Origin: an uncultured Candidatus Saccharibacteria bacterium
GTDB lineage: Bacteria > Patescibacteriota > Minisyncoccia > RBG-13-40-8-A
Assembly: GCA_965231075.1 (NCBI GenBank)
Contig: OZ246412.1
Location: forward strand, 321,587-385,586
Direction: 5' to 3'
DNA length: 64,000 nucleotides
Shown: positions 2,470 through 60,610 of the stretch, piece by piece
How the letters are laid out: every line of letters starts with the position of its first letter
How positions within the stretch are numbered: position 1 is the first letter of the stretch
The notes under the pieces: generated by a model
The model's input: only the letters and a program-made list of their open reading frames with translations
What the model was told of the DNA's origin: nothing
Databases searched by the model: none
Translations under genes and position numbers: made by a program

Positions 2470-3219
2470 GTGAAAAAAACATTTGCTCTCTTTATCTTCG
2501 TTCTTCTGGTGTTCTCTGGAGCGGTTGCTCAGCAATTCCCAAAGAACACGGGCATGGTCAACGATTTTGCTAACATCATTCCTGATGATGTTCAGCAACA
2601 ACTCGAAGAAAACCTGAGAGAATTCAACGGTAAAACGTCGATTGAAATTGCCGTGGTAACGGTAAATTCTCTGGACGGCATGGTCATCGAAGACTACGCC
2701 GCAAGGCTCTTCAAAGAGTGGGGCATTGGCAAAAAAGACAACGATAACGGCGTTTTATTTCTCGTTGCAATGCGGGAGAAAAAAATGCGAATCGAAACCG
2801 GTTACGGTATCGAACCATTTTTAACCGATGCAACTTGCGGCAGGATAATCAATGACCAAATCGTACCGATCTTCAAGAGCGGCGCATACGCTTCGGGCAT
2901 TGCCCTAGGAATAAAAAAAATCATTGAAAAACTCGAGCAAGCCCACACAGAAGAACCTGAAGCACTGACTTCCGGCGACAAAAAAGTGAGGACGTTTAAA
3001 AATAACAGCGAAGTGGTTCTTATTGTCGTTCTCGTAATATTGTTGCTTGTTATAGTCGTGTTCGTTGCCTGGTTTGATGATGGCACGGGCGGTTCTAACG
3101 ATTCCGGCGGGGGGTTCATCAGTGGTAGTGGCTTTTCTTCGGGAGGTTCCGACTCTGGCGGAGGATTCAGCTTTGGTGGTGGATCGTCCGGAGGCGGAGG
3201 AGCCAGTGGTGGTTGGTAA
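2470..3219 (+). CDS. TPM-domain (TLP18.3/Psb32/MOLO-1, YgcG-like) protein with signal peptide, C-terminal TM helix and Gly/Ser-rich tail. GC-rich alien cassette.
   Basis: Motif GVLFLVAMREKKMRIETGYGIEPFLTD matches the TPM consensus. GC content is far above the surroundings. Perfect SD, GTG start. Confidence 0.7.
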   Translation: MKKTFALFIFVLLVFSGAVAQQFPKNTGMVNDFANIIPDDVQQQLEENLREFNGKTSIEIAVVTVNSLDGMVIEDYAARLFKEWGIGKKDNDNGVLFLVAMREKKMRIETGYGIEPFLTDATCGRIINDQIVPIFKSGAYASGIALGIKKIIEKLEQAHTEEPEALTSGDKKVRTFKNNSEVVLIVVLVILLLVIVVFVAWFDDGTGGSNDSGGGFISGSGFSSGGSDSGGGFSFGGGSSGGGGASGGW

Positions 3220-4723: not shown

Positions 4724-5017
4724 TTGATCGAACAACTGTGTGCTGTTTTCTCTGTTTCGGACGTGGTGGCGCAAGTGATCGGGTCGGTCAAGACCTGGAT
4801 CATCAAGATGGATCGGGCGTTCTTGCGTAAGGACCCCTTTCTACTGCTGACGGCGGTATCCTATGTCGTCGCGATGGCTATCGGGACGATGACGGGGCTG
4901 CTGTTCAGCAACGAACTCACCCAATTCATCGTCTTCTTATCGGCGTGGTTGGTGGTGTTCGTGGGCTTGGGCGTCACCTATTGGTTTTTCTTCGCCAAGC
5001 TGGCGCGGAAAAACTAG
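4724..5017 (+). CDS. Small (97 aa) GC-rich integral membrane protein of unknown function; alien cassette
   Basis: Three predicted TM helices, G/C-ending codon bias, perfect SD, TTG start, own terminator. Confidence 0.55.
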   Translation: MIEQLCAVFSVSDVVAQVIGSVKTWIIKMDRAFLRKDPFLLLTAVSYVVAMAIGTMTGLLFSNELTQFIVFLSAWLVVFVGLGVTYWFFFAKLARKN

Positions 5018-7470: not shown

Positions 7471-7544
7471 TGGTGGACCATAGGAGAATCGAACTCCTGT
7501 CCTCCGGATGCAAACCGGGAGCTCTACCACTAAGCTAATGGCCC
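7471..7544 (-). tRNA. tRNA-Ala (anticodon UGC), CCA encoded
   Basis: GGGCCAT acceptor with G3:U70, anticodon loop TTTGCAT, T-arm GGAGTTCGATTCTCC, 3' CCA. Confidence 0.85.
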
Positions 7545-7556
7545 TCAAATAAAATT

Positions 7557-7630
7557 TGCGCGTGCATGGACTCGAACCATGGACCTCGTCATTATCAGTG
7601 ACGCGCTCTAACCGCCTGAGCTACACGCGC
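7557..7630 (-). tRNA. tRNA-Ile (anticodon GAU), no encoded CCA
   Basis: GCGCGTGTAGCTCAGGCGGTTAGAGCGCGTCACTGATAATGACGAGGTCCATGGTTCGAGTCCATGCACGCGC; the classic rRNA spacer tRNA. Confidence 0.85.
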
Positions 7631-7906: not shown

Positions 7907-8042
7907 GAATTCTTTATGGTTTTCCCGATACTTATTATTTGTTTAGTACAAATAATTAAAAAACTTTTTATGTTACTGCCTTATCGGCAAATAATCGACT
8001 CTTACTTAATAAATTTTATTTACTAAGTAAAAATATTTTCCA

Positions 8043-9503
8043 TCCACAGGTTCCCCTACGGATGCCTTGTTATGACTTCACCCTAGTCACCGAATTTACC
8101 TTAGGACTCTGAAATCAGAGCACGTCAGGTACTCCCGGCTTCTCTGGTGTGACAGGCGGTGAGTACAAAGCTTGAGAACGTATTCACCGCAGCGTAGCTG
8201 ATCTGCGATTACTAGCGATTCCGGCTTCATGGGGTCGAATTGCAGACCCCAATCCGAACTGGGGCCGATTTTGATGAGATTGGCTCCATCTTACGACTTG
8301 GCGACTCATTGTATCGGCCATTGTAGCGCCTGTGTTGCCCAGGGTATCAAAGGGCCATGCTGATTTGGCGTCATCCCTACCTTCCTCCTCGTATCACGAG
8401 GCAGTCTTGTCTGACACTTATAACAGACAACAGGGGTTGCGCTTGTTACCCGAATTAACGGAGCAACTCACGCCACAAGCTGACGACAACCATGCAGCAC
8501 CTGTTCTAGTGTCCTTGTAGAAGACCCGACTTTCATCAGGCTTTCACTAGAATTTCAAACCCTGGTAAGGTTCTCCGCTTACCGTCGAATTAAACCAGAC
8601 GCTCCACCGCTTGTGCAAGCTCCCGTCTATTCCTTTGAGTTTTAGTCTTGCGACCGTACTTCCCAGGCGGAGTACTTAACGCGTTAGCTTCGTCACCTGA
8701 AGGGTCGATACTTCAGACAACTAGTACTCATAGTTTAGGGCGTGGACTACAAGGGTATCTAATCCTTTTTGCTCCCCACGCTTTCGTCTCTCAGGGTCAG
8801 AAATGCACCAGCCAAATGCCTTCGCCTTTGGTATTCCCTAAGGTATCAACGGATTTCACCCCTACTCCTTAAGTTCTATTGGCCTCTCACACTCTCTAGT
8901 CTGACCGTTTCCCCTGCAGTTTCGATGTTGAGCATCGAAATTTAACAGAAGACGTATCAAACGCCCTACAGACGCTTTACGCCCAGTAATTCCGGACAAC
9001 GCTTGGGGTACTCGTATTACCGCTGCTGCTGGCACGAGTTTAGCAACCCCTTATTCATAGAGTACACTCAAAAATTGCTCCTCTATAAAAGTACTTTACA
9101 TCCCGAAGGACTTCTTCATACACGCGGCGTCGCTCCATCAGACTTTCGTCCATTGTGGAAGATTCTCGACTGCAGCCTCCCGTAGGAGTAAGGCCCGTAT
9201 CTCAGTGCCATCGTTGGGGAACACGCTCTCACGCCCCCTACCCGTCATCGCCTTGGTAAGCCATTACCTTACCAACTAGCTGATAGGACGCAGGCCACTC
9301 TCTCACCATCTTATCTTGCGATAAGACTTTACTCTTGCGAGACCATCGGAAATTATCTTGCCTTTCGGCAAGTTATGTCCGAGTCAGAGGGATGTACCTA
9401 CGTATTACTAACTCGTTCGCCATGGGTCTAAACCCATTCGACTTGCATGCCTAATCCACGCCGCCAGCGTTCGTCCTGAGCTAGGATCAAACTCTCAATA
9501 AAG
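8043..9503 (-). rRNA. rrs: 16S rRNA, complete, about 1.46 kb
   Basis: 5' end AGAGTTTGATCCTAGCTCAGGACGAACGCTGGCGG (reverse complement at about 9470-9503). 3' end ...GTCATAACAAGGCATCCGTAGGGGAACCTGTGGATGGA (8043-8080). The 530 loop reads GTGCCAGCAGCAGCGGTAATAC (9014-9035), carrying the C-to-A change in the 515F site reported for Patescibacteria. Confidence 0.9.
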
Positions 9504-16320: not shown

Positions 16321-18066
16321 ATGGAAAAACAAATTGAATTAATCAGACATTCACTAAGCCATGTGATGGCGAGTGCAATAAAAGACATTTTTAAAGATGT
16401 TAAATTTGGCATTGGTCCGATAATCGAAAATGGTTTTTATTACGACTTAGATATTAAGCAATCAATCACTCCTGAAGATTTACCCAAGATTGAAGCTCGG
16501 ATGAAAGAAATAATCAAACAAAACATTGAATTTAAGAAAAGCTTAAAAACGAAAGCCGATGCAAACAAGGTTTTTAAAGACCAACCATATAAATTAGAAC
16601 TGATTAAGGAATTGAAGTCGGCAAAAGCAACAATTTATGTCTCTGGTGAATTTACAGATCTCTGTGCTGGCCCCCACGTCAAATCAACCAAAGAAATCGA
16701 CCCAGAAGCATTTAAGCTCACCAAAATCGCTGGAGCGTACTGGAAAGGTAGCGAAAAAAATAAAATGCTACAAAGAATTTATGGAGTCGCATTCGAATCA
16801 AAACAAGAATTAGAAAATTACCTCAAACAACAAGAAGAGGCAGAAAAACGAGATCATCGTAAGCTTGGTAAGGATTTGGATCTGTTTACCGTTGATGATT
16901 ATATTGGACCAGGGTTGGTGTTGTGGCACCCTAAACTTTCCGTGGTTAGAGAAGAAATTGAATTATACTGGAGAAAGCAACACCGAAAGAAAGGATATCA
17001 ATATGTTTATACTCCCCACGTTGGACTTTCAAATTTATGGGAAAAGTCGGGACACCTAGAAAATTTCAGCGGAATGATGTATCCTCCAATGCAGATGTCT
17101 TTAAAAGATAAAACTGAAAATGTGGCATATTACACTAAACCGATGAATTGTCCGTTTCATATTAGAATTTATAAGTCCAAACCACGAAGTTATAAAGAAT
17201 TACCAATTCGCTGGTGCGAACTTGGTAGCGTCTACAGATATGAAGAGTCCGGTGTTTTGCATGGCATGCTTAGGGTAAGGGGTTTCACACAAGATGATGC
17301 ACATATTATTTGTACCGAAGATCAATTTGTTGAGGAGGTAAACAAAATTTTTGATTTCGCAATCGAAATTAACAAGGCTTTCGGGTTTGATAAATTAAAT
17401 GTTTATCTTTCTGTTCGTGATCTTAAAAACAAGGAAGCAAAATACATTAAGAATGAGAAAATTTGGAAATTCGCCGAACAAACCCTAGAAGACATTCTCC
17501 AAAAAAGAAAAATTATATATCAAAAAGATATTGGCGGGGCAAAATTTTACGGTCCATCAATCGATTTAAAGGCAGTTGATTCTATGGGTCGTGAATGGCA
17601 AGGCACAACAATTCAATTGGACATGAACTTACCTACTCGTTTTGGAATGACTTATATTGGTCCGGATGGCAAAGAACACACTCCGATTATGCTTCACCGA
17701 ACATTGCTTGGCTCAATGGAAAGATTTGTTGGTACGCTGATTGAACATTATGCTGGAGCATTTCCGTTTTGGTTGGCACCGGTACAAATTACAATTTTAC
17801 CCGTCGGGAAAAACCATATAGATTTTGCCAAGAAAATTCAAAACAAGTTTCAAGAACATAGTTTTCGAGTTGAGGTTGATGATTCTGACGATACTGTGGG
17901 CAAAAAAATCCGTGAAGCCGAAATGCAAAAAATCCCCTACATTATTGTGGTCGGAGACAAAGAAATGAATTCTAGTGAATTGGCCGTTCGCTCTCGAGGC
18001 CAGAAAGACATTGAAACAATTAATATTGATGAGTTTATCGAAAAAATTAAAACAGAGTTGAAATGA
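16321..18066 (+). CDS. thrS: Threonyl-tRNA synthetase, short form lacking the N-terminal TGS domain
   Basis: Class II motifs, HRKLGKDLDLF, anticodon-binding C-terminus. Confidence 0.85.
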   Translation: MEKQIELIRHSLSHVMASAIKDIFKDVKFGIGPIIENGFYYDLDIKQSITPEDLPKIEARMKEIIKQNIEFKKSLKTKADANKVFKDQPYKLELIKELKSAKATIYVSGEFTDLCAGPHVKSTKEIDPEAFKLTKIAGAYWKGSEKNKMLQRIYGVAFESKQELENYLKQQEEAEKRDHRKLGKDLDLFTVDDYIGPGLVLWHPKLSVVREEIELYWRKQHRKKGYQYVYTPHVGLSNLWEKSGHLENFSGMMYPPMQMSLKDKTENVAYYTKPMNCPFHIRIYKSKPRSYKELPIRWCELGSVYRYEESGVLHGMLRVRGFTQDDAHIICTEDQFVEEVNKIFDFAIEINKAFGFDKLNVYLSVRDLKNKEAKYIKNEKIWKFAEQTLEDILQKRKIIYQKDIGGAKFYGPSIDLKAVDSMGREWQGTTIQLDMNLPTRFGMTYIGPDGKEHTPIMLHRTLLGSMERFVGTLIEHYAGAFPFWLAPVQITILPVGKNHIDFAKKIQNKFQEHSFRVEVDDSDDTVGKKIREAEMQKIPYIIVVGDKEMNSSELAVRSRGQKDIETINIDEFIEKIKTELK

Positions 18067-19967
18067 AGCAATATCATTTAAAAGTTTTCGGATGCCAAAT
18101 GAACGAAAGCGATTCTCAAAGAATCGCTTCGTTTTTAGAACAACAAAATTATCGGACTACAGATAAGATGGAAAACGCAGACCTAATTGTAATCACTGCT
18201 TGCTCTGTGCGACAAAGTGCAATTGATAGGGTTTTTGGTTTAAACAGAAAATTCAGACAATTAAAAGCGAAAAAAATATTGACTGGGTGCGTAATTAAGA
18301 CAGATAAACCCAAGTTCTTAAAATTCTTTGATGAAGTTTTATCTATTGATGAATTATTGGGGAAAAATTATTTAGAGCTACAACCGAAAAATTCAAACAT
18401 TAAATCGGCTTACGTGCCAATAATGACCGGGTGTAATAATTTTTGCACTTACTGTGCCGTCCCCTACACTCGTGGAAGAGAGGTTTCTAGGCCAGCAAAA
18501 AATATCATTACAGAAATAGTTAAACTAATCAAAAATGGTTGCAAAGAAATAATTTTATTAGGACAGAATGTTAATTCCTACAAAGGCGATAAAATTAATT
18601 TTCCCAAACTATTAAAAAGGATTTCTGATATTAAGGGTGATTTTACAATTAAATTCCTCACTTCTCACCCCAAAGATTTTTCTGAAGAACTAATTGATGT
18701 AATCGCTGGTTCTCCTAAAATTAGCCGAGAGATTCACTTGCCAGTGCAAAGTGGCGACAACAACATTCTCGAAAAAATGAATCGTAAATATACGCGCGAA
18801 CACTATATTAACTTAATTAAAAAAATAAAAAATAAAATTCCTGACGTAAGATTTACCACTGATGTTATTGTAGGTTTTCCTGGCGAAACAAAAAAACAAT
18901 TTGAAAATACGGTTAAATTATTTAAAGAAATAAATTTTGATTTGGCCTATATTAATAAATATTCAACCCGCCAAGGCACTGCTGCGGCAAAATTAGAAGA
19001 TAATGTTTCGCTTATTGAGAAAAAACGCAGATGGGAAGTTCTAGAAAAACTTGTAAATCAGAAGCCCAAGATAATTGTCGTCCTCGGTCCTACCGCCTCT
19101 GGTAAATCTAATTTAGCGGTAGAAATTGCTAAAAAATTTAACGGAGAGATAATTTCCGCTGATTCAAGACAAGTTTACAAGGGAATGGATATTGGAACAG
19201 GGAAAATTACCAAAAAAGAAATGTCTGGTGTCCCCCATTATTTATTAGACATTGCTAGTCCTCAGAAACAATTTAGTGTTGGAGAATATAAAAAATTGGC
19301 ACAAAAAGCAATAAATAAAATTATCTCTAAGAACAAAGTACCAATCATTTGTGGAGGTACGGGGTTTTATATCCAAGCCATAACTGAAAATTTGGATATT
19401 CCTGAAGTGGCTCCGGACTGGAAACTGAGAAAACAATTAGAAAAAAGGACAACTGAAAAATTATTAGAACAATTAAAAAAACTTGATCCAGACAGAGCAA
19501 GCAGTATTGATGTTAAAAATCGTCGAAGATTAATTAGAGCAATTGAAATTGTTCTAAAAACAGGGAGGCCGGTGCCACCATTAAATTATGCCGCCCGAGG
19601 CGGACCAGCCGTAGGTTGGGATGTTTTATATATCGGCATTAAAAAATCAATTCCCGAATTAAAAAAATTAATTCATAAACGATTAATTAAACGAATTAAC
19701 GCAGGAATGATTGGAGAAATAAAAAAACTCCACGATCGAGGAGTTAATTGGAATCGTTTAGATGATTTTGGCCTAGAATATCGCTATGTAGCACGTTATC
19801 TGCAAAGAATATTGACCAAAGAGCAAATGATTGAACAATTAGAACAGCAAATTATCAACTTCGCCAAACGTCAAATGACCTGGTTTAAAAAATATCCAGG
19901 CAAAAAAATAAACTGGGTCTTAGGCCCAGTTCAAGCTAAAAATCTCATAAAAAGATTTCTAGAATAA
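18063..19967 (+). CDS. Fusion protein: MiaB-like radical-SAM methylthiotransferase (N-terminal, about 1-330) plus tRNA dimethylallyltransferase MiaA (C-terminal, about 335-634)
   Basis: N-terminus HLKVFGCQMNESDSQ plus CNNFCTYCAVPYTRG radical-SAM motif. The TRAM domain is replaced by IIVVLGPTASGKSNLAVEIAKKFNGEIISADSRQVYKGMDIGTGK, the MiaA P-loop. One uninterrupted 634-codon ORF. Confidence 0.75.
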   Translation: MKQYHLKVFGCQMNESDSQRIASFLEQQNYRTTDKMENADLIVITACSVRQSAIDRVFGLNRKFRQLKAKKILTGCVIKTDKPKFLKFFDEVLSIDELLGKNYLELQPKNSNIKSAYVPIMTGCNNFCTYCAVPYTRGREVSRPAKNIITEIVKLIKNGCKEIILLGQNVNSYKGDKINFPKLLKRISDIKGDFTIKFLTSHPKDFSEELIDVIAGSPKISREIHLPVQSGDNNILEKMNRKYTREHYINLIKKIKNKIPDVRFTTDVIVGFPGETKKQFENTVKLFKEINFDLAYINKYSTRQGTAAAKLEDNVSLIEKKRRWEVLEKLVNQKPKIIVVLGPTASGKSNLAVEIAKKFNGEIISADSRQVYKGMDIGTGKITKKEMSGVPHYLLDIASPQKQFSVGEYKKLAQKAINKIISKNKVPIICGGTGFYIQAITENLDIPEVAPDWKLRKQLEKRTTEKLLEQLKKLDPDRASSIDVKNRRRLIRAIEIVLKTGRPVPPLNYAARGGPAVGWDVLYIGIKKSIPELKKLIHKRLIKRINAGMIGEIKKLHDRGVNWNRLDDFGLEYRYVARYLQRILTKEQMIEQLEQQIINFAKRQMTWFKKYPGKKINWVLGPVQAKNLIKRFLE

Positions 19968-20173: not shown

Positions 20174-21595
20174 TTATTTTAATTTTCTAATAATTATTTC
20201 TGCCGCAATATTTGGATTGGCCTTGCCTTTTGATTCTTTCATTGCTAAGCCAATTAAAAACTGTAACGCAGTCCCCTTGCCTTTTTTGTAATCCTCAACT
20301 GGTTGAGGGTTATTTTTTATTATCTTATCGATGATCTCATCCATTTCTCCTGTATCGGTCATTTGTTTTAAATTTTTTAACTCCACAATTTGTGATGGAT
20401 CGCCTCCAGTTCTAAACATTTCTTTTAAAACTTCTTGCGCTCCACTCGAAGAAACGTCCCCAATAAATGTCATATAAATGAGTTCGGCAAAGTTTTCTGG
20501 TGTAATTTTTATCTCTCCAGTTATTGGCACAAATTTAGGGAATTCAGTAATAATATAATTTGCGCTCAACACAATTAATCGATCAATGTCAGTTTTAATC
20601 TTCCCACCTTCTAACCATCCCTTTAATTCACTTACGGTTTGTTCAAAAAATTCTGATAAATATTTAGATCCCACCAAAACGTCGGCATTTTGTTCCGACA
20701 ACTTGTATTCTTGCGTAAATCTTTCTTTCCTTGCAAATGGTAATTCGGGAATTTCTTGTTTTAATTTTTCTATGTCTTCTCTGCTAAAATTCATTGGTGG
20801 CAAGTCTGGTTCTGGAAAATATCGATAATCATCCGAAGTTTCTTTGATTCTTTGAGAAAAGGTTTCTCCTTTGGCATCGTTCCATCCACGCGTTTCGTGA
20901 ATAACTTTTTGGTCTTCTTCTAAAATCGCTTGCTGTCTAATAATTTCAAATTCAATCGCCTTTTCTACGGATCTAAATGAATTAAGATTTTTTACCTCAA
21001 CTTTTGTGCCCATGTTTAAAGAAATGTTTGCTTCCACGCGCATTTGTCCTTTTTCCATATCGGCATCAGAAATTCCTAAATATTTAAAAATTAATTGCAA
21101 GTCCTGCGCAAATTTCTTTGCTTGTTGAGCATTATGAATGTCTGGCTCCGTAACCAATTCCATCAAAGGAACGCCTGCACGATTATAATCAACTAAAGAA
21201 TAGTCCCCTTTATCGTGAATTGATTTACCAACATCTTCTTCTAAATGAATTCTTCTGATTCTAATATTGTCTAGTTTTCCTTCATAACACAATGGTGATT
21301 CGAATTGTGTAATTTGGTATCCCTTCGGCAAATCGGGATAAAAATAATTCTTTCTCTCGAACCAAGTTTTTTCGTTAATTTTACAATTTAAGGCCAATCC
21401 TGCTTTAATCACATCGTGTGCTGCTTCTTCATTAATGACTGGCATCGAACCCGGTTGCGCAGTACAAACTGGGCAAATATTAACATTGGGATCCTTTTGT
21501 AAAGGATCATTCAAACAAGAACAAAACATTTTCGTTTTGGTCTTTAATTCCACGTGAATTTCTAATCCAATTGTCGGCTCATATTTATTTGCCAT
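20174..21595 (-). CDS. gatB: Asp-tRNA(Asn)/Glu-tRNA(Gln) amidotransferase subunit B
   Basis: N-terminus EPTIGLEIHVELKTKTKMFCSC plus a full-length GatB core. Confidence 0.85.
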   Translation of the reverse strand: MANKYEPTIGLEIHVELKTKTKMFCSCLNDPLQKDPNVNICPVCTAQPGSMPVINEEAAHDVIKAGLALNCKINEKTWFERKNYFYPDLPKGYQITQFESPLCYEGKLDNIRIRRIHLEEDVGKSIHDKGDYSLVDYNRAGVPLMELVTEPDIHNAQQAKKFAQDLQLIFKYLGISDADMEKGQMRVEANISLNMGTKVEVKNLNSFRSVEKAIEFEIIRQQAILEEDQKVIHETRGWNDAKGETFSQRIKETSDDYRYFPEPDLPPMNFSREDIEKLKQEIPELPFARKERFTQEYKLSEQNADVLVGSKYLSEFFEQTVSELKGWLEGGKIKTDIDRLIVLSANYIITEFPKFVPITGEIKITPENFAELIYMTFIGDVSSSGAQEVLKEMFRTGGDPSQIVELKNLKQMTDTGEMDEIIDKIIKNNPQPVEDYKKGKGTALQFLIGLAMKESKGKANPNIAAEIIIRKLK

Positions 21596-21596
21596 A

Positions 21597-22136
21597 TTAT
21601 ACCTGTTTTTCTTTTTTCTTGGTTGTTACTCGACCGCCTTGCCACTGACCACGATAAAGATGTGACTTGCCATCAACTTTAAAAAACATCGCGTGTGCAA
21701 CTCTTGCGCCAAGTTCAATTTCAACATCAACCGGACCAATGTTAGCGATTCCAAAAGTTAATTCTCCGCAATAACCAGGAGCACAATTGCCGGTAATAAT
21801 TGTCATCCCTGAACGAAATATAGTTGTACGTGGCCTAAACAAAATTACAATATCTTTTGGCGTGTTTACTTTCTCAACTGTCTTCATTAAATAATATGTG
21901 CCAGGTTTAAATAAAAATTTCTCTTTTTTGTTTCCGTTAAACTTCGCCAATAATTTAATTTCTGGGGTTTTTCTCTCTTCGATACCCAAAAATGATTTTC
22001 CTTCTAATTGGTAAATTTCGCCCAATCTCAAATCAAAACCTGCACCCTCCGGATTTTCCAACTCCCTTTGGCATAAATTTTCTACCAATTTTTTATCTTT
22101 GACCAACTTATGTAATTTATCAATTCCTAAAATCAT
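21597..22136 (-). CDS. dcd: dCTP deaminase (dUTPase superfamily)
   Basis: N-terminal MILGIDKL...DLRLG, C-terminal RSGMTIITGNCAPGYCGELTFGI, collinear with E. coli Dcd. AT-rich native composition. Confidence 0.65.
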   Translation of the reverse strand: MILGIDKLHKLVKDKKLVENLCQRELENPEGAGFDLRLGEIYQLEGKSFLGIEERKTPEIKLLAKFNGNKKEKFLFKPGTYYLMKTVEKVNTPKDIVILFRPRTTIFRSGMTIITGNCAPGYCGELTFGIANIGPVDVEIELGARVAHAMFFKVDGKSHLYRGQWQGGRVTTKKKEKQV

Positions 22137-22154
22137 ATATCTATATCTTATATT

Positions 22155-22200
22155 AAAATAATAAAAAAATGAAGTCCTACCGGCTATCCGGTAGGACTTC
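22155..22200 (-). terminator. Terminator of the GC-rich dCMP-deaminase/thyX cassette
   Basis: GAAGTCCTACCGG-CTAT-CCGGTAGGACTTC followed by T7ATTATTTT on the minus strand. Confidence 0.7.
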
Positions 22201-22208
22201 TTCGATTT

Positions 22209-22487
22209 TTAAAGACCGAGTCGTTTTTTGAGTTCCTCCTCACCCTCAATCCTGATAGGATCAATCTTAAACGGTTCGCCCTCTAGTGGTTCACAGATAC
22301 TTTCTCCTGATCTGCGTAAATCACAGAGTTTGCCGTTTATCCCGTGTTCCAGGACTTTTGGGCTTACCCCCGTCCCCATGTCGATGTCTTCGACGGTTTC
22401 ACCGTGTACACTGCAACAGGAATAGGTTCCATCCGGTTCTGGCTTGAAAAACAATCGATACATGCAGGTAAAGCACTGTCCTTTCAT
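22209..22487 (-). CDS. 92-aa Cys-rich protein of unknown function, translationally coupled to thyX (ATGA overlap); GC-rich
   Basis: MKGQCFTCMYRLF...YSCCSVHGETVED...; seven Cys, GC-rich codons. Confidence 0.45.
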   Translation of the reverse strand: MKGQCFTCMYRLFFKPEPDGTYSCCSVHGETVEDIDMGTGVSPKVLEHGINGKLCDLRRSGESICEPLEGEPFKIDPIRIEGEEELKKRLGL

Positions 22488-23200
22488 TTCGAGTACCCCT
22501 TTGTTGCCATTTCCTGAAAATCCTTAAACAAAGATGGTGCTTGCTGCATCACGATATCGTAAAACAGTTTATGGAGCCGCCGAATCTCCCACTCGGCATC
22601 TTGAGCCAATCGAAGATTAAACAGATACCGCAGAGATCTGGCGTTGCAATAAGCGTAGCATGGCGTGCACCAGAAAACCGGCATGTTTTTCCTCGAATCT
22701 TGCTTTGTGGCACCCAGAGCGATTTTGGAATCATATTCCGCGATTGCTCTTTTGGCGGTTTTTTCATCGATGCTCAGAAGTTGTTTGACCGAATCTTCAT
22801 CTTCGACGTAATGATAGGTATTGTAAACAAATCTGTTCTGACTTGCCGAGATAAATCTCGTGCTTCTGAATGTCCATCCAATACCGATTCTGTGCCGAAC
22901 CCATTGGTTCTGTAGACTTTTGGTAATACCGTCTACGTCAAAGACGAAAGATAGTGCCTCAAGAGGAGTGTGATGCCCCTTCTTGATTAGCCACTCGTTC
23001 AGTCTTAGGTCGTCGATTATTGTCCCCAAAGATTCGTGGCTTCTTCGTGCGGTGAAGGCCGGAAGAGTCTCGGGTGTAACCAACTCGATGTACCTGCCAA
23101 CCGGTTGTGTCATTGCCACCAATTCAGCAACCGGTTCGACGTTTCTGAACAACCCTTCCCTCAAATGTTTCCATTTGTCGATGTCCGCGTATTCGATCAT
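22484..23200 (-). CDS. thyX: Flavin-dependent thymidylate synthase
   Basis: RHRIGIGWTFRSTR (ThyX RHR...S signature), 238 aa, GC-rich. Confidence 0.8.
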   Translation of the reverse strand: MIEYADIDKWKHLREGLFRNVEPVAELVAMTQPVGRYIELVTPETLPAFTARRSHESLGTIIDDLRLNEWLIKKGHHTPLEALSFVFDVDGITKSLQNQWVRHRIGIGWTFRSTRFISASQNRFVYNTYHYVEDEDSVKQLLSIDEKTAKRAIAEYDSKIALGATKQDSRKNMPVFWCTPCYAYCNARSLRYLFNLRLAQDAEWEIRRLHKLFYDIVMQQAPSLFKDFQEMATKGYSK

Positions 23201-23201
23201 G

Positions 23202-23663
23202 TTAAACCTCCTCAGTATCGGTGATTTGTATCAATTCGATGCCAACTCCGGCAAAAAGTTCGGAAACCTGCGGAAACTCTTCTTCATAGCGCTTGACGTA
23301 AAAAACTCTTTTGACGCCCAGGTTGTTAAGATGCTTGGCACAGTCGTAACACGGCGAATAAGTGCAATAGAGATCGCAATCCGATAAATTAATGCCATTT
23401 TTCGCGGCATTTACAATGGCATTCATTTCTGCGTGAGCACCTCTGCACCTTTTTGATCCTGAAGGAAGAAATTTTCCATCGACTTTTTTGGCGCACCCCA
23501 CCGCGTCACAGTGTTTATCGCCGGCAGTTGGACCATTATAGCCAACCTGCAAGAGTTGCTTTCCACGAACAAAAACGGCGCCAATTTGATAAAGCTGACA
23601 TCTTGATTTTTTTGCCAGAAGATTAACCATCTCCACGAATAGTTTCTGCCAAGAAATAGCCAT
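23202..23663 (-). CDS. dCMP deaminase (cytidine/deoxycytidylate deaminase family)
   Basis: HAEMNAI zinc motif and SPCYDCAK second zinc ligand pair; 153 aa; GC-rich. Confidence 0.8.
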   Translation of the reverse strand: MAISWQKLFVEMVNLLAKKSRCQLYQIGAVFVRGKQLLQVGYNGPTAGDKHCDAVGCAKKVDGKFLPSGSKRCRGAHAEMNAIVNAAKNGINLSDCDLYCTYSPCYDCAKHLNNLGVKRVFYVKRYEEEFPQVSELFAGVGIELIQITDTEEV

Positions 23664-23744
23664 GTTTTTTTGTCCTTTCTTGTTAAATTGTAAGGAGCTT
23701 TCCCCCTTTATTTATAAAAATCTCATCTTATCAATGAGATTTTT

Positions 23745-23773
23745 ATAATATCAAATTAAATTAATAATATCAA
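23745..23773 (-). promoter_or_regulatory. Cassette promoter TTGATA-N17-TATTAT, followed by a 5'-UTR hairpin
   Basis: -35 at 23768-23773, -10 at 23745-23750. The hairpin AAAATCTCAT-TGATAAG-ATGAGATTTT (23716-23745) sits in the leader. The promoter overlaps the 3' end of trxB. Confidence 0.5.
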
Positions 23774-24684
23774 GCTTTATTTTTTAAATAATCCGTCGCT
23801 GCTAACATTGCTTTTGCGCCTTCACCACAAGCAATTGTAATTTGTTCATATTTAATATCAGTAATATCGCCAGCAGCAAATAGTCCCGGCGTTTTTGTGT
23901 TGTTGTTTTTATCAATAACGATTTCGCCAACCTTATTTAATTCAACCCACTTTTCGGCAAATCCAACTTTCGCCGACATGCCCACAGAAATAAATACTCC
24001 ACCAACATTAATTTCCGAATCCTCGCCAGTTTTTCTGTCTTCATAAACTAAGCTCTCGACAAATTTTGTCCCCTTAATCTCCTTAACCGAAACATTGGTG
24101 ATAAATTCTACAATTCCACTTTGTGCTAATTTCTCTTTAGTTATTGGATCTCCTTTCATTTCTTCAAAAAATTCTAAAATGTAAACTTTCTTGGCATATT
24201 TAATCATGTCTAATGCAACTCCAAACCCAGCATTACCACCTCCGATTACTGCCACATCTTTGTCTTTAAACATTGGCGCATCACAAGTAGAACAAATACT
24301 TACCCCTTTACCTTTAAATTGATCTTCTCCGGGAATATTTAATGATCGAGGAATCTTGCCGGTTGCAATCACCACTGTCCTGGCTTCGTATTTTTCTTCG
24401 CCATCATTAATTATAAAATTATCACCGTTTTTATCTAGATCAATAACTTCTTTGTTTTCTTTAATTTCTATTTCAAAGTTCTTCAAATGTTCGGTCATTT
24501 GCTTCATTAAATCCATTCCGGAAATTTTCTTAATTCCTGGCCAATTTTCAATTTCAATCGCTTTAGTAACCTGACCACCCCATTCTTTGGTGATTAAAAG
24601 TGTTTTTAATTTTTTTCTGGCAGCATAAATTCCCGCCGTAATTCCAGCCGGTCCCCCGCCGATAATTATTACATCGTAAATCAT
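23770..24684 (-). CDS. trxB: Thioredoxin reductase
   Basis: VIIIGGGPAGITAGIYAAR FAD motif and CSTCDAP redox-active site. Confidence 0.85.
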   Translation of the reverse strand: MIYDVIIIGGGPAGITAGIYAARKKLKTLLITKEWGGQVTKAIEIENWPGIKKISGMDLMKQMTEHLKNFEIEIKENKEVIDLDKNGDNFIINDGEEKYEARTVVIATGKIPRSLNIPGEDQFKGKGVSICSTCDAPMFKDKDVAVIGGGNAGFGVALDMIKYAKKVYILEFFEEMKGDPITKEKLAQSGIVEFITNVSVKEIKGTKFVESLVYEDRKTGEDSEINVGGVFISVGMSAKVGFAEKWVELNKVGEIVIDKNNNTKTPGLFAAGDITDIKYEQITIACGEGAKAMLAATDYLKNKA

Positions 24685-25458: not shown

Positions 25459-26034
25459 TCAAAGCTTAACGCTGAAACTCGCTTCTCCGGTCCAGCCAGA
25501 GTTGATCGTGTCCCAAGCGAACCAGAACTGGATCGCCCCGAACTTGACCGTAGGACCGATTTGGAAGAAAATCGTCTTTTCTCCAAACGTCCCGCAACCG
25601 GACCAGCGGAGACCCCAGCCGTCCTTGCCAACCGTGTGACGAACGAACCAGATCCCCTTACCATCGCGGTCGATCCCAACTTCGTTGACGAACGCCCCGA
25701 ACAGGCCGAAGGCCGAAATCACGGGCGTCACATCCATGGTCACGGAATTGACCAATTCCTTGGTCTTCTTCGCGGCCAGATTGAAGTGGGGACCAATGGC
25801 TACCTGGACCGATCCGATCTTGCCCAGCTTGAATGCCGGGGGACCGAATTTGGTCAGCAGAGACCCGGACCCGGGCCAGGTCAGCATGAAGTAGTAGTTC
25901 ATGCCCTTAGGCGCGTCGTGGAAATACCACGCATTCGCCTTCGAAGGAAAGACCTGGAACTGAGCCCGGTCTTCCGCCACGGCCATCGGAACCATGAACA
26001 GGACGAGCAGAACAACGATCATAAGATTTTTCAT
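25459..26034 (-). CDS. GC-rich secreted beta-rich protein (191 aa, signal peptide, aromatic/Gly-rich; ends ...FSVKL); alien cassette
   Basis: AGAGGAG SD, consensus promoter at 26074-26102, G/C codon bias. Alternating aromatic strands suggest a beta-barrel or beta-sandwich. Confidence 0.55.
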   Translation of the reverse strand: MKNLMIVVLLVLFMVPMAVAEDRAQFQVFPSKANAWYFHDAPKGMNYYFMLTWPGSGSLLTKFGPPAFKLGKIGSVQVAIGPHFNLAAKKTKELVNSVTMDVTPVISAFGLFGAFVNEVGIDRDGKGIWFVRHTVGKDGWGLRWSGCGTFGEKTIFFQIGPTVKFGAIQFWFAWDTINSGWTGEASFSVKL

Positions 26035-52149: not shown

Positions 52150-52545
52150 ATGACCAAGAAAATCCTTTACGCTCTTTTCATCGTGTTCGTGGTCGGTATC
52201 CTGGCCAACGCCGGGTACCACATCGGCGAGATCTGGGGTTCGGTCCAGGGGGACGTCGTCGACCCCACGTTCGTCCAGAGCTTTCTGGCCGGACCGGACA
52301 AGGTTCTCGATTTCGAGAAGGACATCGATTCGACAGTCCAGGGAATCGTCTTCACGTTACTGGGAATCCCCTTCCTGGTCATCGTGCTTCTTCTCTGGAT
52401 CGTCTACTTCCTGTTCTTCGGAGAGCTGTTCCGGTTCATCGGGGTTCTCCCGTCGATCCTGGCCACGCTGGCCAGCATCGTGATCGCGGTGATCTGCCTC
52501 AAGCGGAGCCGCGAGAACAAGACCACAACCACGACCACGACCTGA
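52150..52545 (+). CDS. GC-rich 131-aa membrane protein with a poly-Thr C-terminus; alien cassette
   Basis: About 3 TM helices, ...ENKTTTTTTT, G/C codon bias. Confidence 0.55.
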   Translation: MTKKILYALFIVFVVGILANAGYHIGEIWGSVQGDVVDPTFVQSFLAGPDKVLDFEKDIDSTVQGIVFTLLGIPFLVIVLLLWIVYFLFFGELFRFIGVLPSILATLASIVIAVICLKRSRENKTTTTTTT

Positions 52546-60079: not shown

Positions 60080-60610
60080 CTATTTCAGAAAATTCCACCA
60101 AAGTTCGAAAGTGCAGACGAGGAGCATTAGGGCCGTACTAATCAGAATTTCCTTTCTGATTTTGGTCGGATAACCCCACTTTCTGACCCATGACTTGCCC
60201 CACGGATAGAAGAAGGACGCATAAGGATAAGTTTCATCGTTTTTCTGGAAACGATCGATCATCATGTGTACGAACCAGAACGTAAACGGAACCCACCATA
60301 AACGGTGAAAAAATATTAATCCGCACACAAACGACATGATTGCTCCGGGCCAAAGATGAAACCAGCATGCAGGGATTTTTACTCCCGGAGACGGCTTGCC
60401 AACATCACCGCCCCTGAGAAATCGCGGAATACGCACGAAAAAAATGTCCGCGACATAACTCGGCGAGGTGAAGTGATCGGCAAAGTCCATTACCGAACCC
60501 CAGAAATAAATGAGTGCGAGCTGGAGAATAGAAAACTCCATCCCGAACCCGAAAAGCAGAATCGCCCGAAACGCGAACGTAATGTCAAAGTGCGTCATTG
60601 GTGCGGCCAT
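60080..60610 (-). CDS. GC-rich 176-aa Trp/Phe-rich membrane protein; alien cassette
   Basis: AAAGGAGGTG SD 5 nt before the ATG; perfect consensus promoter at 60645-60673. Confidence 0.55.
   Translation of the reverse strand: MAAPMTHFDITFAFRAILLFGFGMEFSILQLALIYFWGSVMDFADHFTSPSYVADIFFVRIPRFLRGGDVGKPSPGVKIPACWFHLWPGAIMSFVCGLIFFHRLWWVPFTFWFVHMMIDRFQKNDETYPYASFFYPWGKSWVRKWGYPTKIRKEILISTALMLLVCTFELWWNFLK

Follow-up and report, generated by a model that had tools for sequence, protein, structure and literature searches.

In this study, we revisited a GC-rich group of thymidylate genes in a 64,000-nt stretch of DNA (the window) from an uncultured Candidatus Saccharibacteria bacterium (GenBank assembly GCA_965231075.1, contig OZ246412.1, positions 321,587 to 385,586). 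The group encodes a dCMP deaminase, the flavin-dependent thymidylate synthase ThyX and a 92-aa cysteine-rich protein, and lies between trxB and a gene of the DCD/dUTPase superfamily, here called the DCD-like gene, which is followed by gatB. A preliminary description had presented these three genes as an alien cassette inserted beside a native dcd gene. We consider it distinctly probable that the locus is instead an ancestral and conserved thymidylate operon of bacteria of the Candidate Phyla Radiation (CPR) in which the synthase has been replaced in place, and not a foreign insertion.

According to the model that we propose, positions 22171-23773 would be the local copy of a thymidylate-supply operon that is ancestral in a Paceibacteria/Portnoybacteria-type CPR lineage. 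To judge from family membership, the deaminase would provide dUMP and ThyX would convert it to dTMP with methylenetetrahydrofolate (CH2-THF) and reduced flavin; a small protein with four conserved cysteines (the Cys4 protein), which probably binds zinc, would be co-translated with the synthase, and a DCD/dUTPase-family protein would come next in the module. In the window genome or its sister, the bodies of thyX and of the small open reading frame (ORF) would have been exchanged by recombination for a divergent CPR allele, with the conserved 5' end of thyX and the downstream region as anchors. In another pair of relatives thyX alone may have been swapped, and further relatives hold ThyA in the same slot.

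Conservation of the operon upstream of gatB

A ThyX protein identical to that of the window is encoded by a 626-kb NCBI contig and by two Logan assemblies, and the arrangement is therefore not an assembly chimera. ThyX homologues with 55-69% identity were found on CPR contigs, which, where they carry a name, are assigned to Paceibacterota or Portnoybacteria. The nearest relative, locus L016 of Candidatus Portnoybacteria (GCA_026395495.1), has flanks that are about 85% identical at the nucleotide level and the order trxB-dCMP deaminase-thyX-93-aa gene-DCD-gatB, which matches the gene content of the window. The proteins encoded on either side are nearly the same in the two genomes, with amino acid identities of 89% for TrxB, 90-91% for the dCMP deaminase, 94% for the DCD-like protein and 96% for GatB; for ThyX the value is 55% and for the small protein 63%.

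Loci in other relatives have the same framework. In L008 the order is GH1, EamA, nifS, nifU, a TRX-like gene, DUF5667, grx, trxB, dCMP deaminase, thyX, gatB, miaB/A, thrS and dnaE, so that the position of trxB as neighbour is conserved there (83% amino acid identity to the window) as it is in L016. L003, L004 and L011 have dCMP deaminase-thyX-gatB-miaB/A-thrS-dnaE, L013 has dCMP deaminase-thyX-92-aa gene-gatB, L024 and L030 have dCMP deaminase-thyX-small gene-DCD-gatB, and the pair of dCMP deaminase and thyX is also directly upstream of gatB in L006. Across all syntenic loci GatB is 55-96% identical. The place of the operon immediately upstream of gatB is older than the divergence of these lineages. 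One of these loci, L024 (DAOVKX010000091.1), is a 3.6-kb contig labelled Candidatus Nanohaloarchaea that also carries nusG/L11-like ORFs, and its proteins are 65-75% identical to those of the CPR window.

None of the relatives examined has an empty site, that is, the DCD-like gene and gatB adjoining trxB without the three genes; the cassette is found at this locus across related CPR. Neither meaningful flanking direct repeats nor integrase or mobility genes were detected at the locus, and the nearest tRNA genes, as possible targets, are 7.5 kb and 33.8 kb away. Of what defines a genomic island, an atypical composition is present (GC3 z = 3.1-5.9, see below), but the genes are not missing from the corresponding site of close relatives, as L016 and all syntenic relatives have them, and signatures of mobility (flanking repeats, an integrase, a tRNA target) are absent. 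The same genes, at the same locus and with the same raised GC in a relative, are what the preliminary description itself had named as refuting it; as L016 has them, the proposed insertion of an alien cassette does not stand, nor does the view that such an insertion completed a dTMP route.

Probable replacement of the synthase within its slot

While the operon as a whole is resident, one part of it has a history of its own. In a global MAFFT alignment of the window with L016, sliding nucleotide identity is 80-93% over trxB, the following spacer (93%), the deaminase gene and the first ~100 nt of thyX, then drops with sharp borders to 40-70% over the thyX body (23097-22500), where blastn against L016 returned only a 214-nt match with 69% identity. 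The conserved N-terminal part of the small ORF (22473-22414) is again 90% identical and separates this tract from a second one in the body of the small ORF (22413-22234, 52-60%), and from about 22230 through the terminator, the DCD-like gene and gatB the identity is back at 85-95%. The first ~35 codons of thyX in the window are thus native-like and the remainder belongs to a divergent allele. The second pair of relatives, L003 and L008, gave a comparable picture: the deaminase genes are 93-98% identical, thyX only 46-70% from about codon 20 to the stop, and the identity rises to 87-90% from just before gatB.

Neighbour-joining trees with 200 bootstraps are in agreement with these breaks. The dCMP deaminase tree groups the window with L016 (100%) and L003 with L008 (100%), and the latter pair is also found in the gatB tree (98%). 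Because the deaminase tree is congruent with that of gatB, the deaminase gene is a resident of the locus and has been inherited vertically in this clade. The ThyX tree joins L008 with L016 (100%) and places the window elsewhere, in conflict with this species signal and with both other trees. The suggestion of foreign DNA therefore applies in part: the bodies of thyX and of the small ORF have their own history, but the deaminase, which had been thought to be as alien as ThyX, does not. Two independent pairs of relatives combine a sharp, segment-limited drop in identity with an incongruent tree, which is the hallmark of homologous (xenologous) replacement.

The slot can also be occupied by the unrelated synthase. 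ThyA fills it in L014, L018, L020, L022, L023, L025, L028 and L031-L034, and in L028 the order is dCMP deaminase-ThyA-small gene-DCD-serine hydroxymethyltransferase (SHMT)-FolD-gatB. Taken together, the sharp identity breaks and the incongruence of the trees suggest a hot spot of homologous or xenologous replacement at the synthase slot. It was also observed that SHMT and FolD genes lie directly downstream in ThyA-type operons (L014, L020, L022 and L028), whereas the ThyX-type operons (the window, L016, L024 and L030) are without them there, although ThyX also needs CH2-THF. In the remainder of the window, tblastn found no thyA, SHMT, FolD or Dut.

Outside the CPR, the nearest ThyX proteins (49-56% identity) carry the names Deltaproteobacteria, Thermodesulfobacteriota or Desulfomonilia, that is, Desulfobacterota. 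One such genome has a dCMP deaminase-DCD-ThyX-NDK operon, which indicates that the enzyme trio is an old and transferable module.

Base composition of the operon

The 60 ORFs of the window served as reference for composition, with a median G+C content at third codon positions (GC3) of 0.307 and a robust standard deviation of 0.037. Against this reference the dCMP deaminase gene (GC 0.44, GC3 0.42, z = 3.1), thyX (GC 0.46, GC3 0.52, z = 5.9) and the 92-aa ORF (GC 0.47, GC3 0.47, z = 4.5) are outliers, and the neighbours trxB, DCD and gatB have a GC3 of 0.28-0.29. The compositional borders are sharp and coincide with the two hairpins, and G+C at first and second codon positions (GC1, GC2) is raised less than GC3. 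The three genes had correctly been described as a tightly coupled, compositionally atypical unit between hairpins.

A similar excess is seen in L016, where the three genes have GC3 values of 0.45, 0.47 and 0.40 vs 0.21-0.30 in the flanks. Apart from these two loci it is present in L011 and absent from L003, L006, L008, L013, L024, L026 and L030. With only these three loci showing it, the excess can be ascribed neither to the gene families as such nor to a fossil common to all CPR carriers. We infer that it is a lineage-limited property of the recombining segment, best accounted for by import of alleles from GC-richer relatives and/or by GC-biased gene conversion and not by the arrival of a new module. 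Import of GC-richer alleles, as a candidate explanation, would have to predate the split between the window and L016.

Alternative explanations

As an alternative to replacement within a resident operon, a foreign GC-rich tri-cistronic cassette, possibly derived from a phage, could recently have been inserted between trxB and a native dcd gene and have newly provided a scavenging cell with a route to dTMP. This would fit the GC3 of three adjacent genes (z 3.1-5.9) with its sharp borders at two hairpins, the existence of other small GC-rich islets in the window that look inserted (for example 25459-26034, GC3 0.74), and the fact that phages carry dCMP deaminase and ThyX families (PHROGs). We nevertheless regard it as very unlikely, given the same genes with the same GC at the same locus in L016, the presence of the gene pair upstream of gatB in at least seven further lineages, the congruence of the deaminase and gatB trees, the membership of the DCD-family gene in the same conserved module and the lack of detectable repeats or an integrase. 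A phage origin in particular, which the common pairing of dCMP deaminase with ThyX in phages had brought to mind, was rejected: the best ThyX in 50,697 phage records searched by tblastn was 31% identical, and scans of IMG/VR with ThyX and with the small protein gave no relative. An older event also has to be considered, namely one ancient acquisition of dCMP deaminase, DCD and ThyX by a CPR ancestor from a GC-richer, Desulfobacterota-like donor, in which case the GC excess would be an incompletely ameliorated fossil and differences in evolutionary rate would be the main reason for the incongruence of ThyX. The closest non-CPR ThyX proteins do come from this group, and the dCMP deaminase-DCD-ThyX-NDK operon of L037/L038 has a DCD with the same non-canonical motif; however, an excess limited to the window, L016 and L011 is no shared fossil, rate variation leaves the sharp thyX identity breaks in two sister pairs unexplained, and L037 itself has a GC content of only 40%. 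This scenario seems improbable to us.

A further proposal is compatible with replacement in a resident operon and differs from it only in the cause of the GC excess, which would be a by-product of GC-biased gene conversion at an often-recombining locus. It is in line with the recombination demonstrated twice at this locus, with a GC3 of the deaminase gene that is raised in exactly those lineages where that of thyX is raised, and with the lesser increase of GC1 and GC2. On the other hand, a conversion bias in CPR would be an assumption, and L003 and L008 have recombined at thyX yet show little GC3 excess, so that we treat it as a possible but rather doubtful sole cause. Several points also weigh against replacement within an ancestral operon as we propose it. 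The vertically inherited deaminase gene also has raised GC3, and simple import of thyX is therefore not a full explanation. The ThyX of the window is only 64-69% identical to every relative in the databases, none of which stands out as a donor or gives the exchange a direction. The comparison draws on metagenomic contigs, of which L024 is probably a mis-binned CPR contig, and the neighbour-joining trees are built on few taxa. Finally, the enzyme activities, the transcription as an operon and the binding of zinc are predictions from sequence.

The 92-aa Cys4 protein

The small gene directly follows a thymidylate synthase gene on its 3' side in all 19 distinct contexts in which it was found, often with an overlap or at a distance of 1-30 nt. 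ThyX is the synthase in 8 and ThyA in 11 of these contexts; since it was the small protein itself that led to the ThyA contexts, these are biased, and the frequency of the small gene cannot be estimated from them. Every contig that extends far enough has a dCMP deaminase gene 5' of the synthase, and on the 3' side there follows a 179-aa DCD-like gene in 13 of the 19 contexts and a classical Dut in one. Among seven independently found ThyX loci, three have the small gene, and the four others lack the DCD-like gene as well. Because it always comes after the synthase, be it ThyX or ThyA, with the deaminase upstream, there is strong reason to regard the 92-aa protein as a member of a rare orphan family tied to dUMP/dTMP metabolism irrespective of the type of synthase. 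As defined in this analysis, members are of about 90 aa, have four cysteines (C5, C8, C25 and C55) together with E30, S42, G61, S63, P72, F73, R79 and E83, and are encoded directly 3' of thyX or thyA, all of which applies to the window protein. Co-evolution of the small protein with the synthase type was considered as well, without a clear signal: ThyA- and ThyX-linked members are intermingled in a neighbour-joining tree.

The family is small. An exhaustive profile search of 1.84 billion representatives gave only ~20 clusters at E<=1e-10, nearly all of 87-115 aa, and members with names come from Portnoybacteria and Wolfebacteria; a profile scan of the genome contigs with alignment A2 found one locus. 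A known domain was sought and rejected, as Pfam, NCBIfam, PHROGs and PDB profile searches with the 92-aa protein were all empty, and Pfam scans of each of 27 members at E<=10 produced only scattered single matches and no consistent Pfam or NCBIfam zinc-ribbon model. Near-invariant positions in alignment A3 are C5, C8, C25, C55, E30, I35, G40, S42, G61, S63, P72, F73, R79 and E83. The protein of the window is acidic, with a net charge of about -5 as counted from its sequence, which argues against DNA binding. An AlphaFold (AF2) model computed from 27 sequences has a mean predicted local distance difference test score (pLDDT) of 96.8 and a predicted template modelling score (pTM) of 0.86 (with 5 sequences, the pLDDT is 51), and predicts a CxxC turn, a beta-hairpin, a helix and a C-terminal helix. 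Foldseek searches with this model against PDB and BFVD gave nothing with E below 2.

In size (~90 aa), and in having a CxxC in its N-terminal part, a beta-hairpin after it and two more conserved cysteines, the protein resembles zinc-ribbon and zinc-knuckle accessory proteins. It differs from them in that no zinc-ribbon model or Foldseek match was obtained and that metal binding is here a prediction. Going by gene context only, our best guess is that the protein binds metal through its four cysteines and serves the operon enzymes, possibly the DCD-like protein, as an adaptor or regulator. It might, for instance, be a zinc-dependent adaptor or regulator that couples the dCMP deaminase, the synthase and the DCD-like protein. 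In Firmicutes, folA often sits after thyA in thyA-folA operons, and the small gene of the ThyA loci occupies the place where folA would be; another possible role is thus the supply of an otherwise missing function. That the Cys4 protein founds a new fold family dedicated to thymidylate/dUMP metabolism in CPR, independent of ThyA or ThyX, is an idea that we put forward tentatively and would not yet call the likelier outcome.

The DCD-like protein

The gene downstream of the small ORF had been taken to be a dcd gene that performs the step from dCTP to dUTP and to be the only native step of the pathway. The second part of this view is contradicted by the 13 of 19 small-gene contexts with the DCD-like gene, which make it part of the conserved module; it is in fact the most conserved gene of the module, with 70-94% amino acid identity between loci whose gatB products are 50-70% identical. 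As to the first part, the protein scores below the cut-off for dCTP deaminases (TIGR02274, dCTP_deam; 74.9 bits, cut-off 92.8) and likewise below those for dUTPases (archaeal dUTPase PRK02253, 69.4 bits, cut-off 130; TIGR00576, 20.5 bits, cut-off 102.6), and thus qualifies as neither.

The sequence places the protein within the superfamily fold of archaeal-type dUTPases and dCTP deaminases (8y1w, 9ln0, 9w59, 2yzj and 4xjc; E 1e-8 to 1e-11), and in the alignment with 4xjc its motif GNCAPGYCGELTFG is opposite GWVDPGFNGQITLE. dCTP deaminases use the Glu of a TLE motif in catalysis. The DCD-like protein reads LTFG at this place, against ITLE in 4xjc, and thus has Gly instead of the Glu; a lack of this Glu is shared with archaeal dUTPases. 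Unlike the archaeal-type enzymes, it also lacks the aligned Asp of motif III, which is present in 8y1w, 4xjc, 9w59, 2yzj and the Dut of L018; the position is Ala (CAPGY) in the window protein and Ser in other members. This Asp is the catalytic base in Dut, and a D83N variant was practically inactive (PMC5519681). With neither the catalytic Asp nor the catalytic Glu in the aligned positions, the assignment of a dCTP-to-dUTP reaction is unproven. The variant motif [AS]P.Y.G.LT.G is conserved in the CPR homologues and in the Desulfobacterota operon (L037). This non-canonical DCD subfamily (the window, L014, L016, L022, L028 and L037) is always linked to a dCMP deaminase and a thymidylate synthase.

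ThyX and the dCMP deaminase

The two family assignments that had been made for the cassette enzymes were confirmed. The deaminase matches PF00383 with 78.3 bits (cut-off 25) and phrog_174 (E 1.9e-36), and has the zinc motifs HAE and PCxxC (GAHAEMNAI and SPCYDCAKHL). Against TIGR02571 it reaches 100 bits, with an equivalog cut-off of 219, and this ComEB/Dctd-type dCMP deaminase is therefore not ComEB proper. ThyX is above the cut-offs of both PF02511 (105.6 bits, cut-off 24.8) and the equivalog model TIGR02170 (103.5 bits, cut-off 87.9). The motif and dUMP-binding residues of Thermotoga maritima ThyX are R78, H79, R80, S88, R90, R147 and R174. In an alignment with this enzyme (3n0b, 1kq4-type chains) the window protein keeps RHR, S..R, sRknmP (the R147 equivalent) and NARSL, and has a one-residue insertion in the ThyX motif and Phe in place of Y91.

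Two synthases of relatives deviate further. The ThyX of L016 (2078-2881) has RQR where the ThyX motif has the canonical RHR, and a ~30-aa Lys/Glu-rich C-terminal extension (267 aa vs 238 aa). In L018 (4571-5986; Candidatus Wolfebacteria, GCA_016219775.1), ThyA carries a fused C-terminal region, in a protein of 471 aa, and is followed by the small Cys protein and then by a classical dUTPase; weak PterinBD-DUF4346 and faint MtrA matches in the C-terminal region hint at a non-standard pterin or C1 carrier for that synthase.

Layout of the locus

The genes between 20174 and 24684 are all encoded by the minus strand (Table 1), and the ORFs are where the preliminary description had placed them. The trxB-dCMP deaminase spacer measures 106 nt. 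The gap between the deaminase stop and thyX is 1 nt and not, as previously given, 2 nt; the ATGA overlap of the thyX stop with the start of the small ORF and the terminator after the small ORF are both present as described, and the stop of the DCD-family gene is separated from gatB by a 1-nt gap.

Table 1. Features of the thymidylate operon and its neighbours in the window
Feature	Position	Strand	Remarks
trxB (thioredoxin reductase)	23770-24684	-	PF07992, E 2.8e-47; GC3 0.28; native upstream neighbour
Sigma-70-like match TTGATA-17-TATTAT, candidate promoter	23745-23773	-	10/12 matches plus TG; overlaps trxB stop
Perfect 15-bp AU-rich palindromic hairpin	23712-23748	-	A run before, T run after
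dCMP deaminase	23202-23663	-	PF00383, E 4.6e-22; GC3 0.42
ThyX, flavin-dependent thymidylate synthase	22484-23200	-	PF02511, E 3.7e-30; TIGR02170
Replaced tract 1, thyX body	22500-23097	-	40-70% nt identity to L016; flanks ~85%
92-aa acidic Cys-rich ORF	22209-22487	-	No family match; coupled to thyX by ATGA overlap
Replaced tract 2, small-ORF body	22234-22413	-	52-60% nt identity to L016
Intrinsic terminator of the three-gene operon	22171-22200	-	13-bp stem, 8 GC pairs, T run; z = -6.2
DCD/dUTPase-superfamily gene, 179 aa, non-canonical subfamily	21597-22136	-	PF22769, E 3.5e-22
gatB, downstream synteny anchor	20174-21595	-	PF02934 and PF02637 (annotation of L001)

The trxB-dCMP deaminase spacer folds with -26.6 kcal/mol (z = -5.5), and both hairpins are far better than those of shuffled sequences. 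The terminator region downstream of the small ORF is 88-95% identical in L016. In the upstream hairpin, pairing is kept in L016 through one compensatory change (A-U to G-C), and L008 has a different, GC-rich terminator hairpin in the same place. This hairpin had been called a 5'-UTR hairpin of the cassette; a reading as the intrinsic terminator of trxB is at least as good and, being the simplest, most likely. Alternatively, it may be a leader or attenuator hairpin of the operon, downstream of the candidate promoter. The promoter that had been proposed over the trxB stop is there as a match, which is kept in L016 and not in L008, but the number of promoter-like matches in the region does not exceed that in shuffled sequences (7 vs 6.1 +/- 2.5). 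At Rfam gathering thresholds, the window matches only rRNA and tRNA, and no RNA element was detected in the trxB-dCMP deaminase spacer.

Relation to known systems

We regard the locus as a conserved and otherwise ordinary thymidylate operon whose synthase has been replaced in place; it adds two modestly novel leads, the Cys4 family and the DCD-like subfamily. Widespread lateral gene transfer and non-homologous displacement have been documented for ThyA and ThyX (Stern et al. 2010, PMC2826268). As in other bacterial thymidylate operons with such displacement, the synthase is patchy and transfer-prone, ThyA and ThyX alternate between related genomes, and the synthase is linked to suppliers of dUMP, that is, dCMP deaminase and Dcd/Dut. 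ThyA/ThyX displacement is reportedly also a subject of Myllykallio et al. 2002. What differs here is that the displacement is seen in place, in one conserved operon slot, that breakpoints can be mapped in two sister pairs, with the first ~20-35 thyX codons kept, and that ThyX-for-ThyX swaps occur in addition to ThyA/ThyX alternation. The locus thus offers base-level examples of in-place synthase replacement, a phenomenon earlier inferred mainly from phyletic patterns.

The Desulfobacterota operon (L037/L038, GCA_021162585.1) has the same three enzyme families in adjacent positions, with a ThyX of 53% identity and a DCD-like protein with the same motif [AS]P.Y.G.LT.G. It differs in that its DCD precedes ThyX and an NDK gene comes after, that the small Cys protein is absent and that the dCMP deaminase is only 32% identical.

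A GC anomaly beside AT-rich genes marks, at this locus, a recombination-prone slot in an ancestral operon and not an insertion that completes a pathway, and synteny should be checked before GC islands in CPR genomes are called acquisitions. For the poorly understood nucleotide economy of streamlined bacteria, the orphan Cys4 protein and the DCD-like protein without the canonical Asp and Glu are two testable leads; if borne out, the Cys4 family together with a DCD-like protein lacking both catalytic residues would amount to an undescribed variant of the dUMP-supply branch.

Other observations in the window

A recent foreign insertion is far more plausible for a 191-aa ORF with a signal peptide at 25459-26034 (-) than for the thyX cassette. 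This ORF has a GC of 0.56 and a GC3 of 0.74 (z = 11.8) and gave no Pfam, NCBIfam or PHROG match. Its neighbours are the TRX-like gene and DUF5667, and in L008 the corresponding place is taken by a radical-SAM gene; the ORF occurs in both Logan assemblies (L001 and L002). Other GC3 outliers are the ORFs at 4724-5017 (+, 0.79), 52150-52545 (+, 0.84), 60080-60610 (-, 0.57) and 2470-3219 (+, 0.49). These four encode unrelated small membrane or secreted proteins, of which only that at 2470-3219 has a domain (TPM phosphatase). The genome has a GC content of 36% and appears to be peppered with short GC-rich islets.

At 18063-19967 (+), a single ORF of 634 aa combines miaB (radical SAM methylthiotransferase) with miaA (IPP transferase); the fusion was found in most relatives, and L006 has two separate genes. 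The rRNA operon of the window is split, with ~7 kb between the block of the 16S rRNA gene (8028-9502, -) and the tRNA-Ile and tRNA-Ala genes (7471-7630, -) and the 5' end of the 23S rRNA gene (position 383, -). This intervening stretch encodes a solute-binding protein, two Mur ligases, a TPM-domain protein, an ArsP-like exporter and an MscL-like protein.

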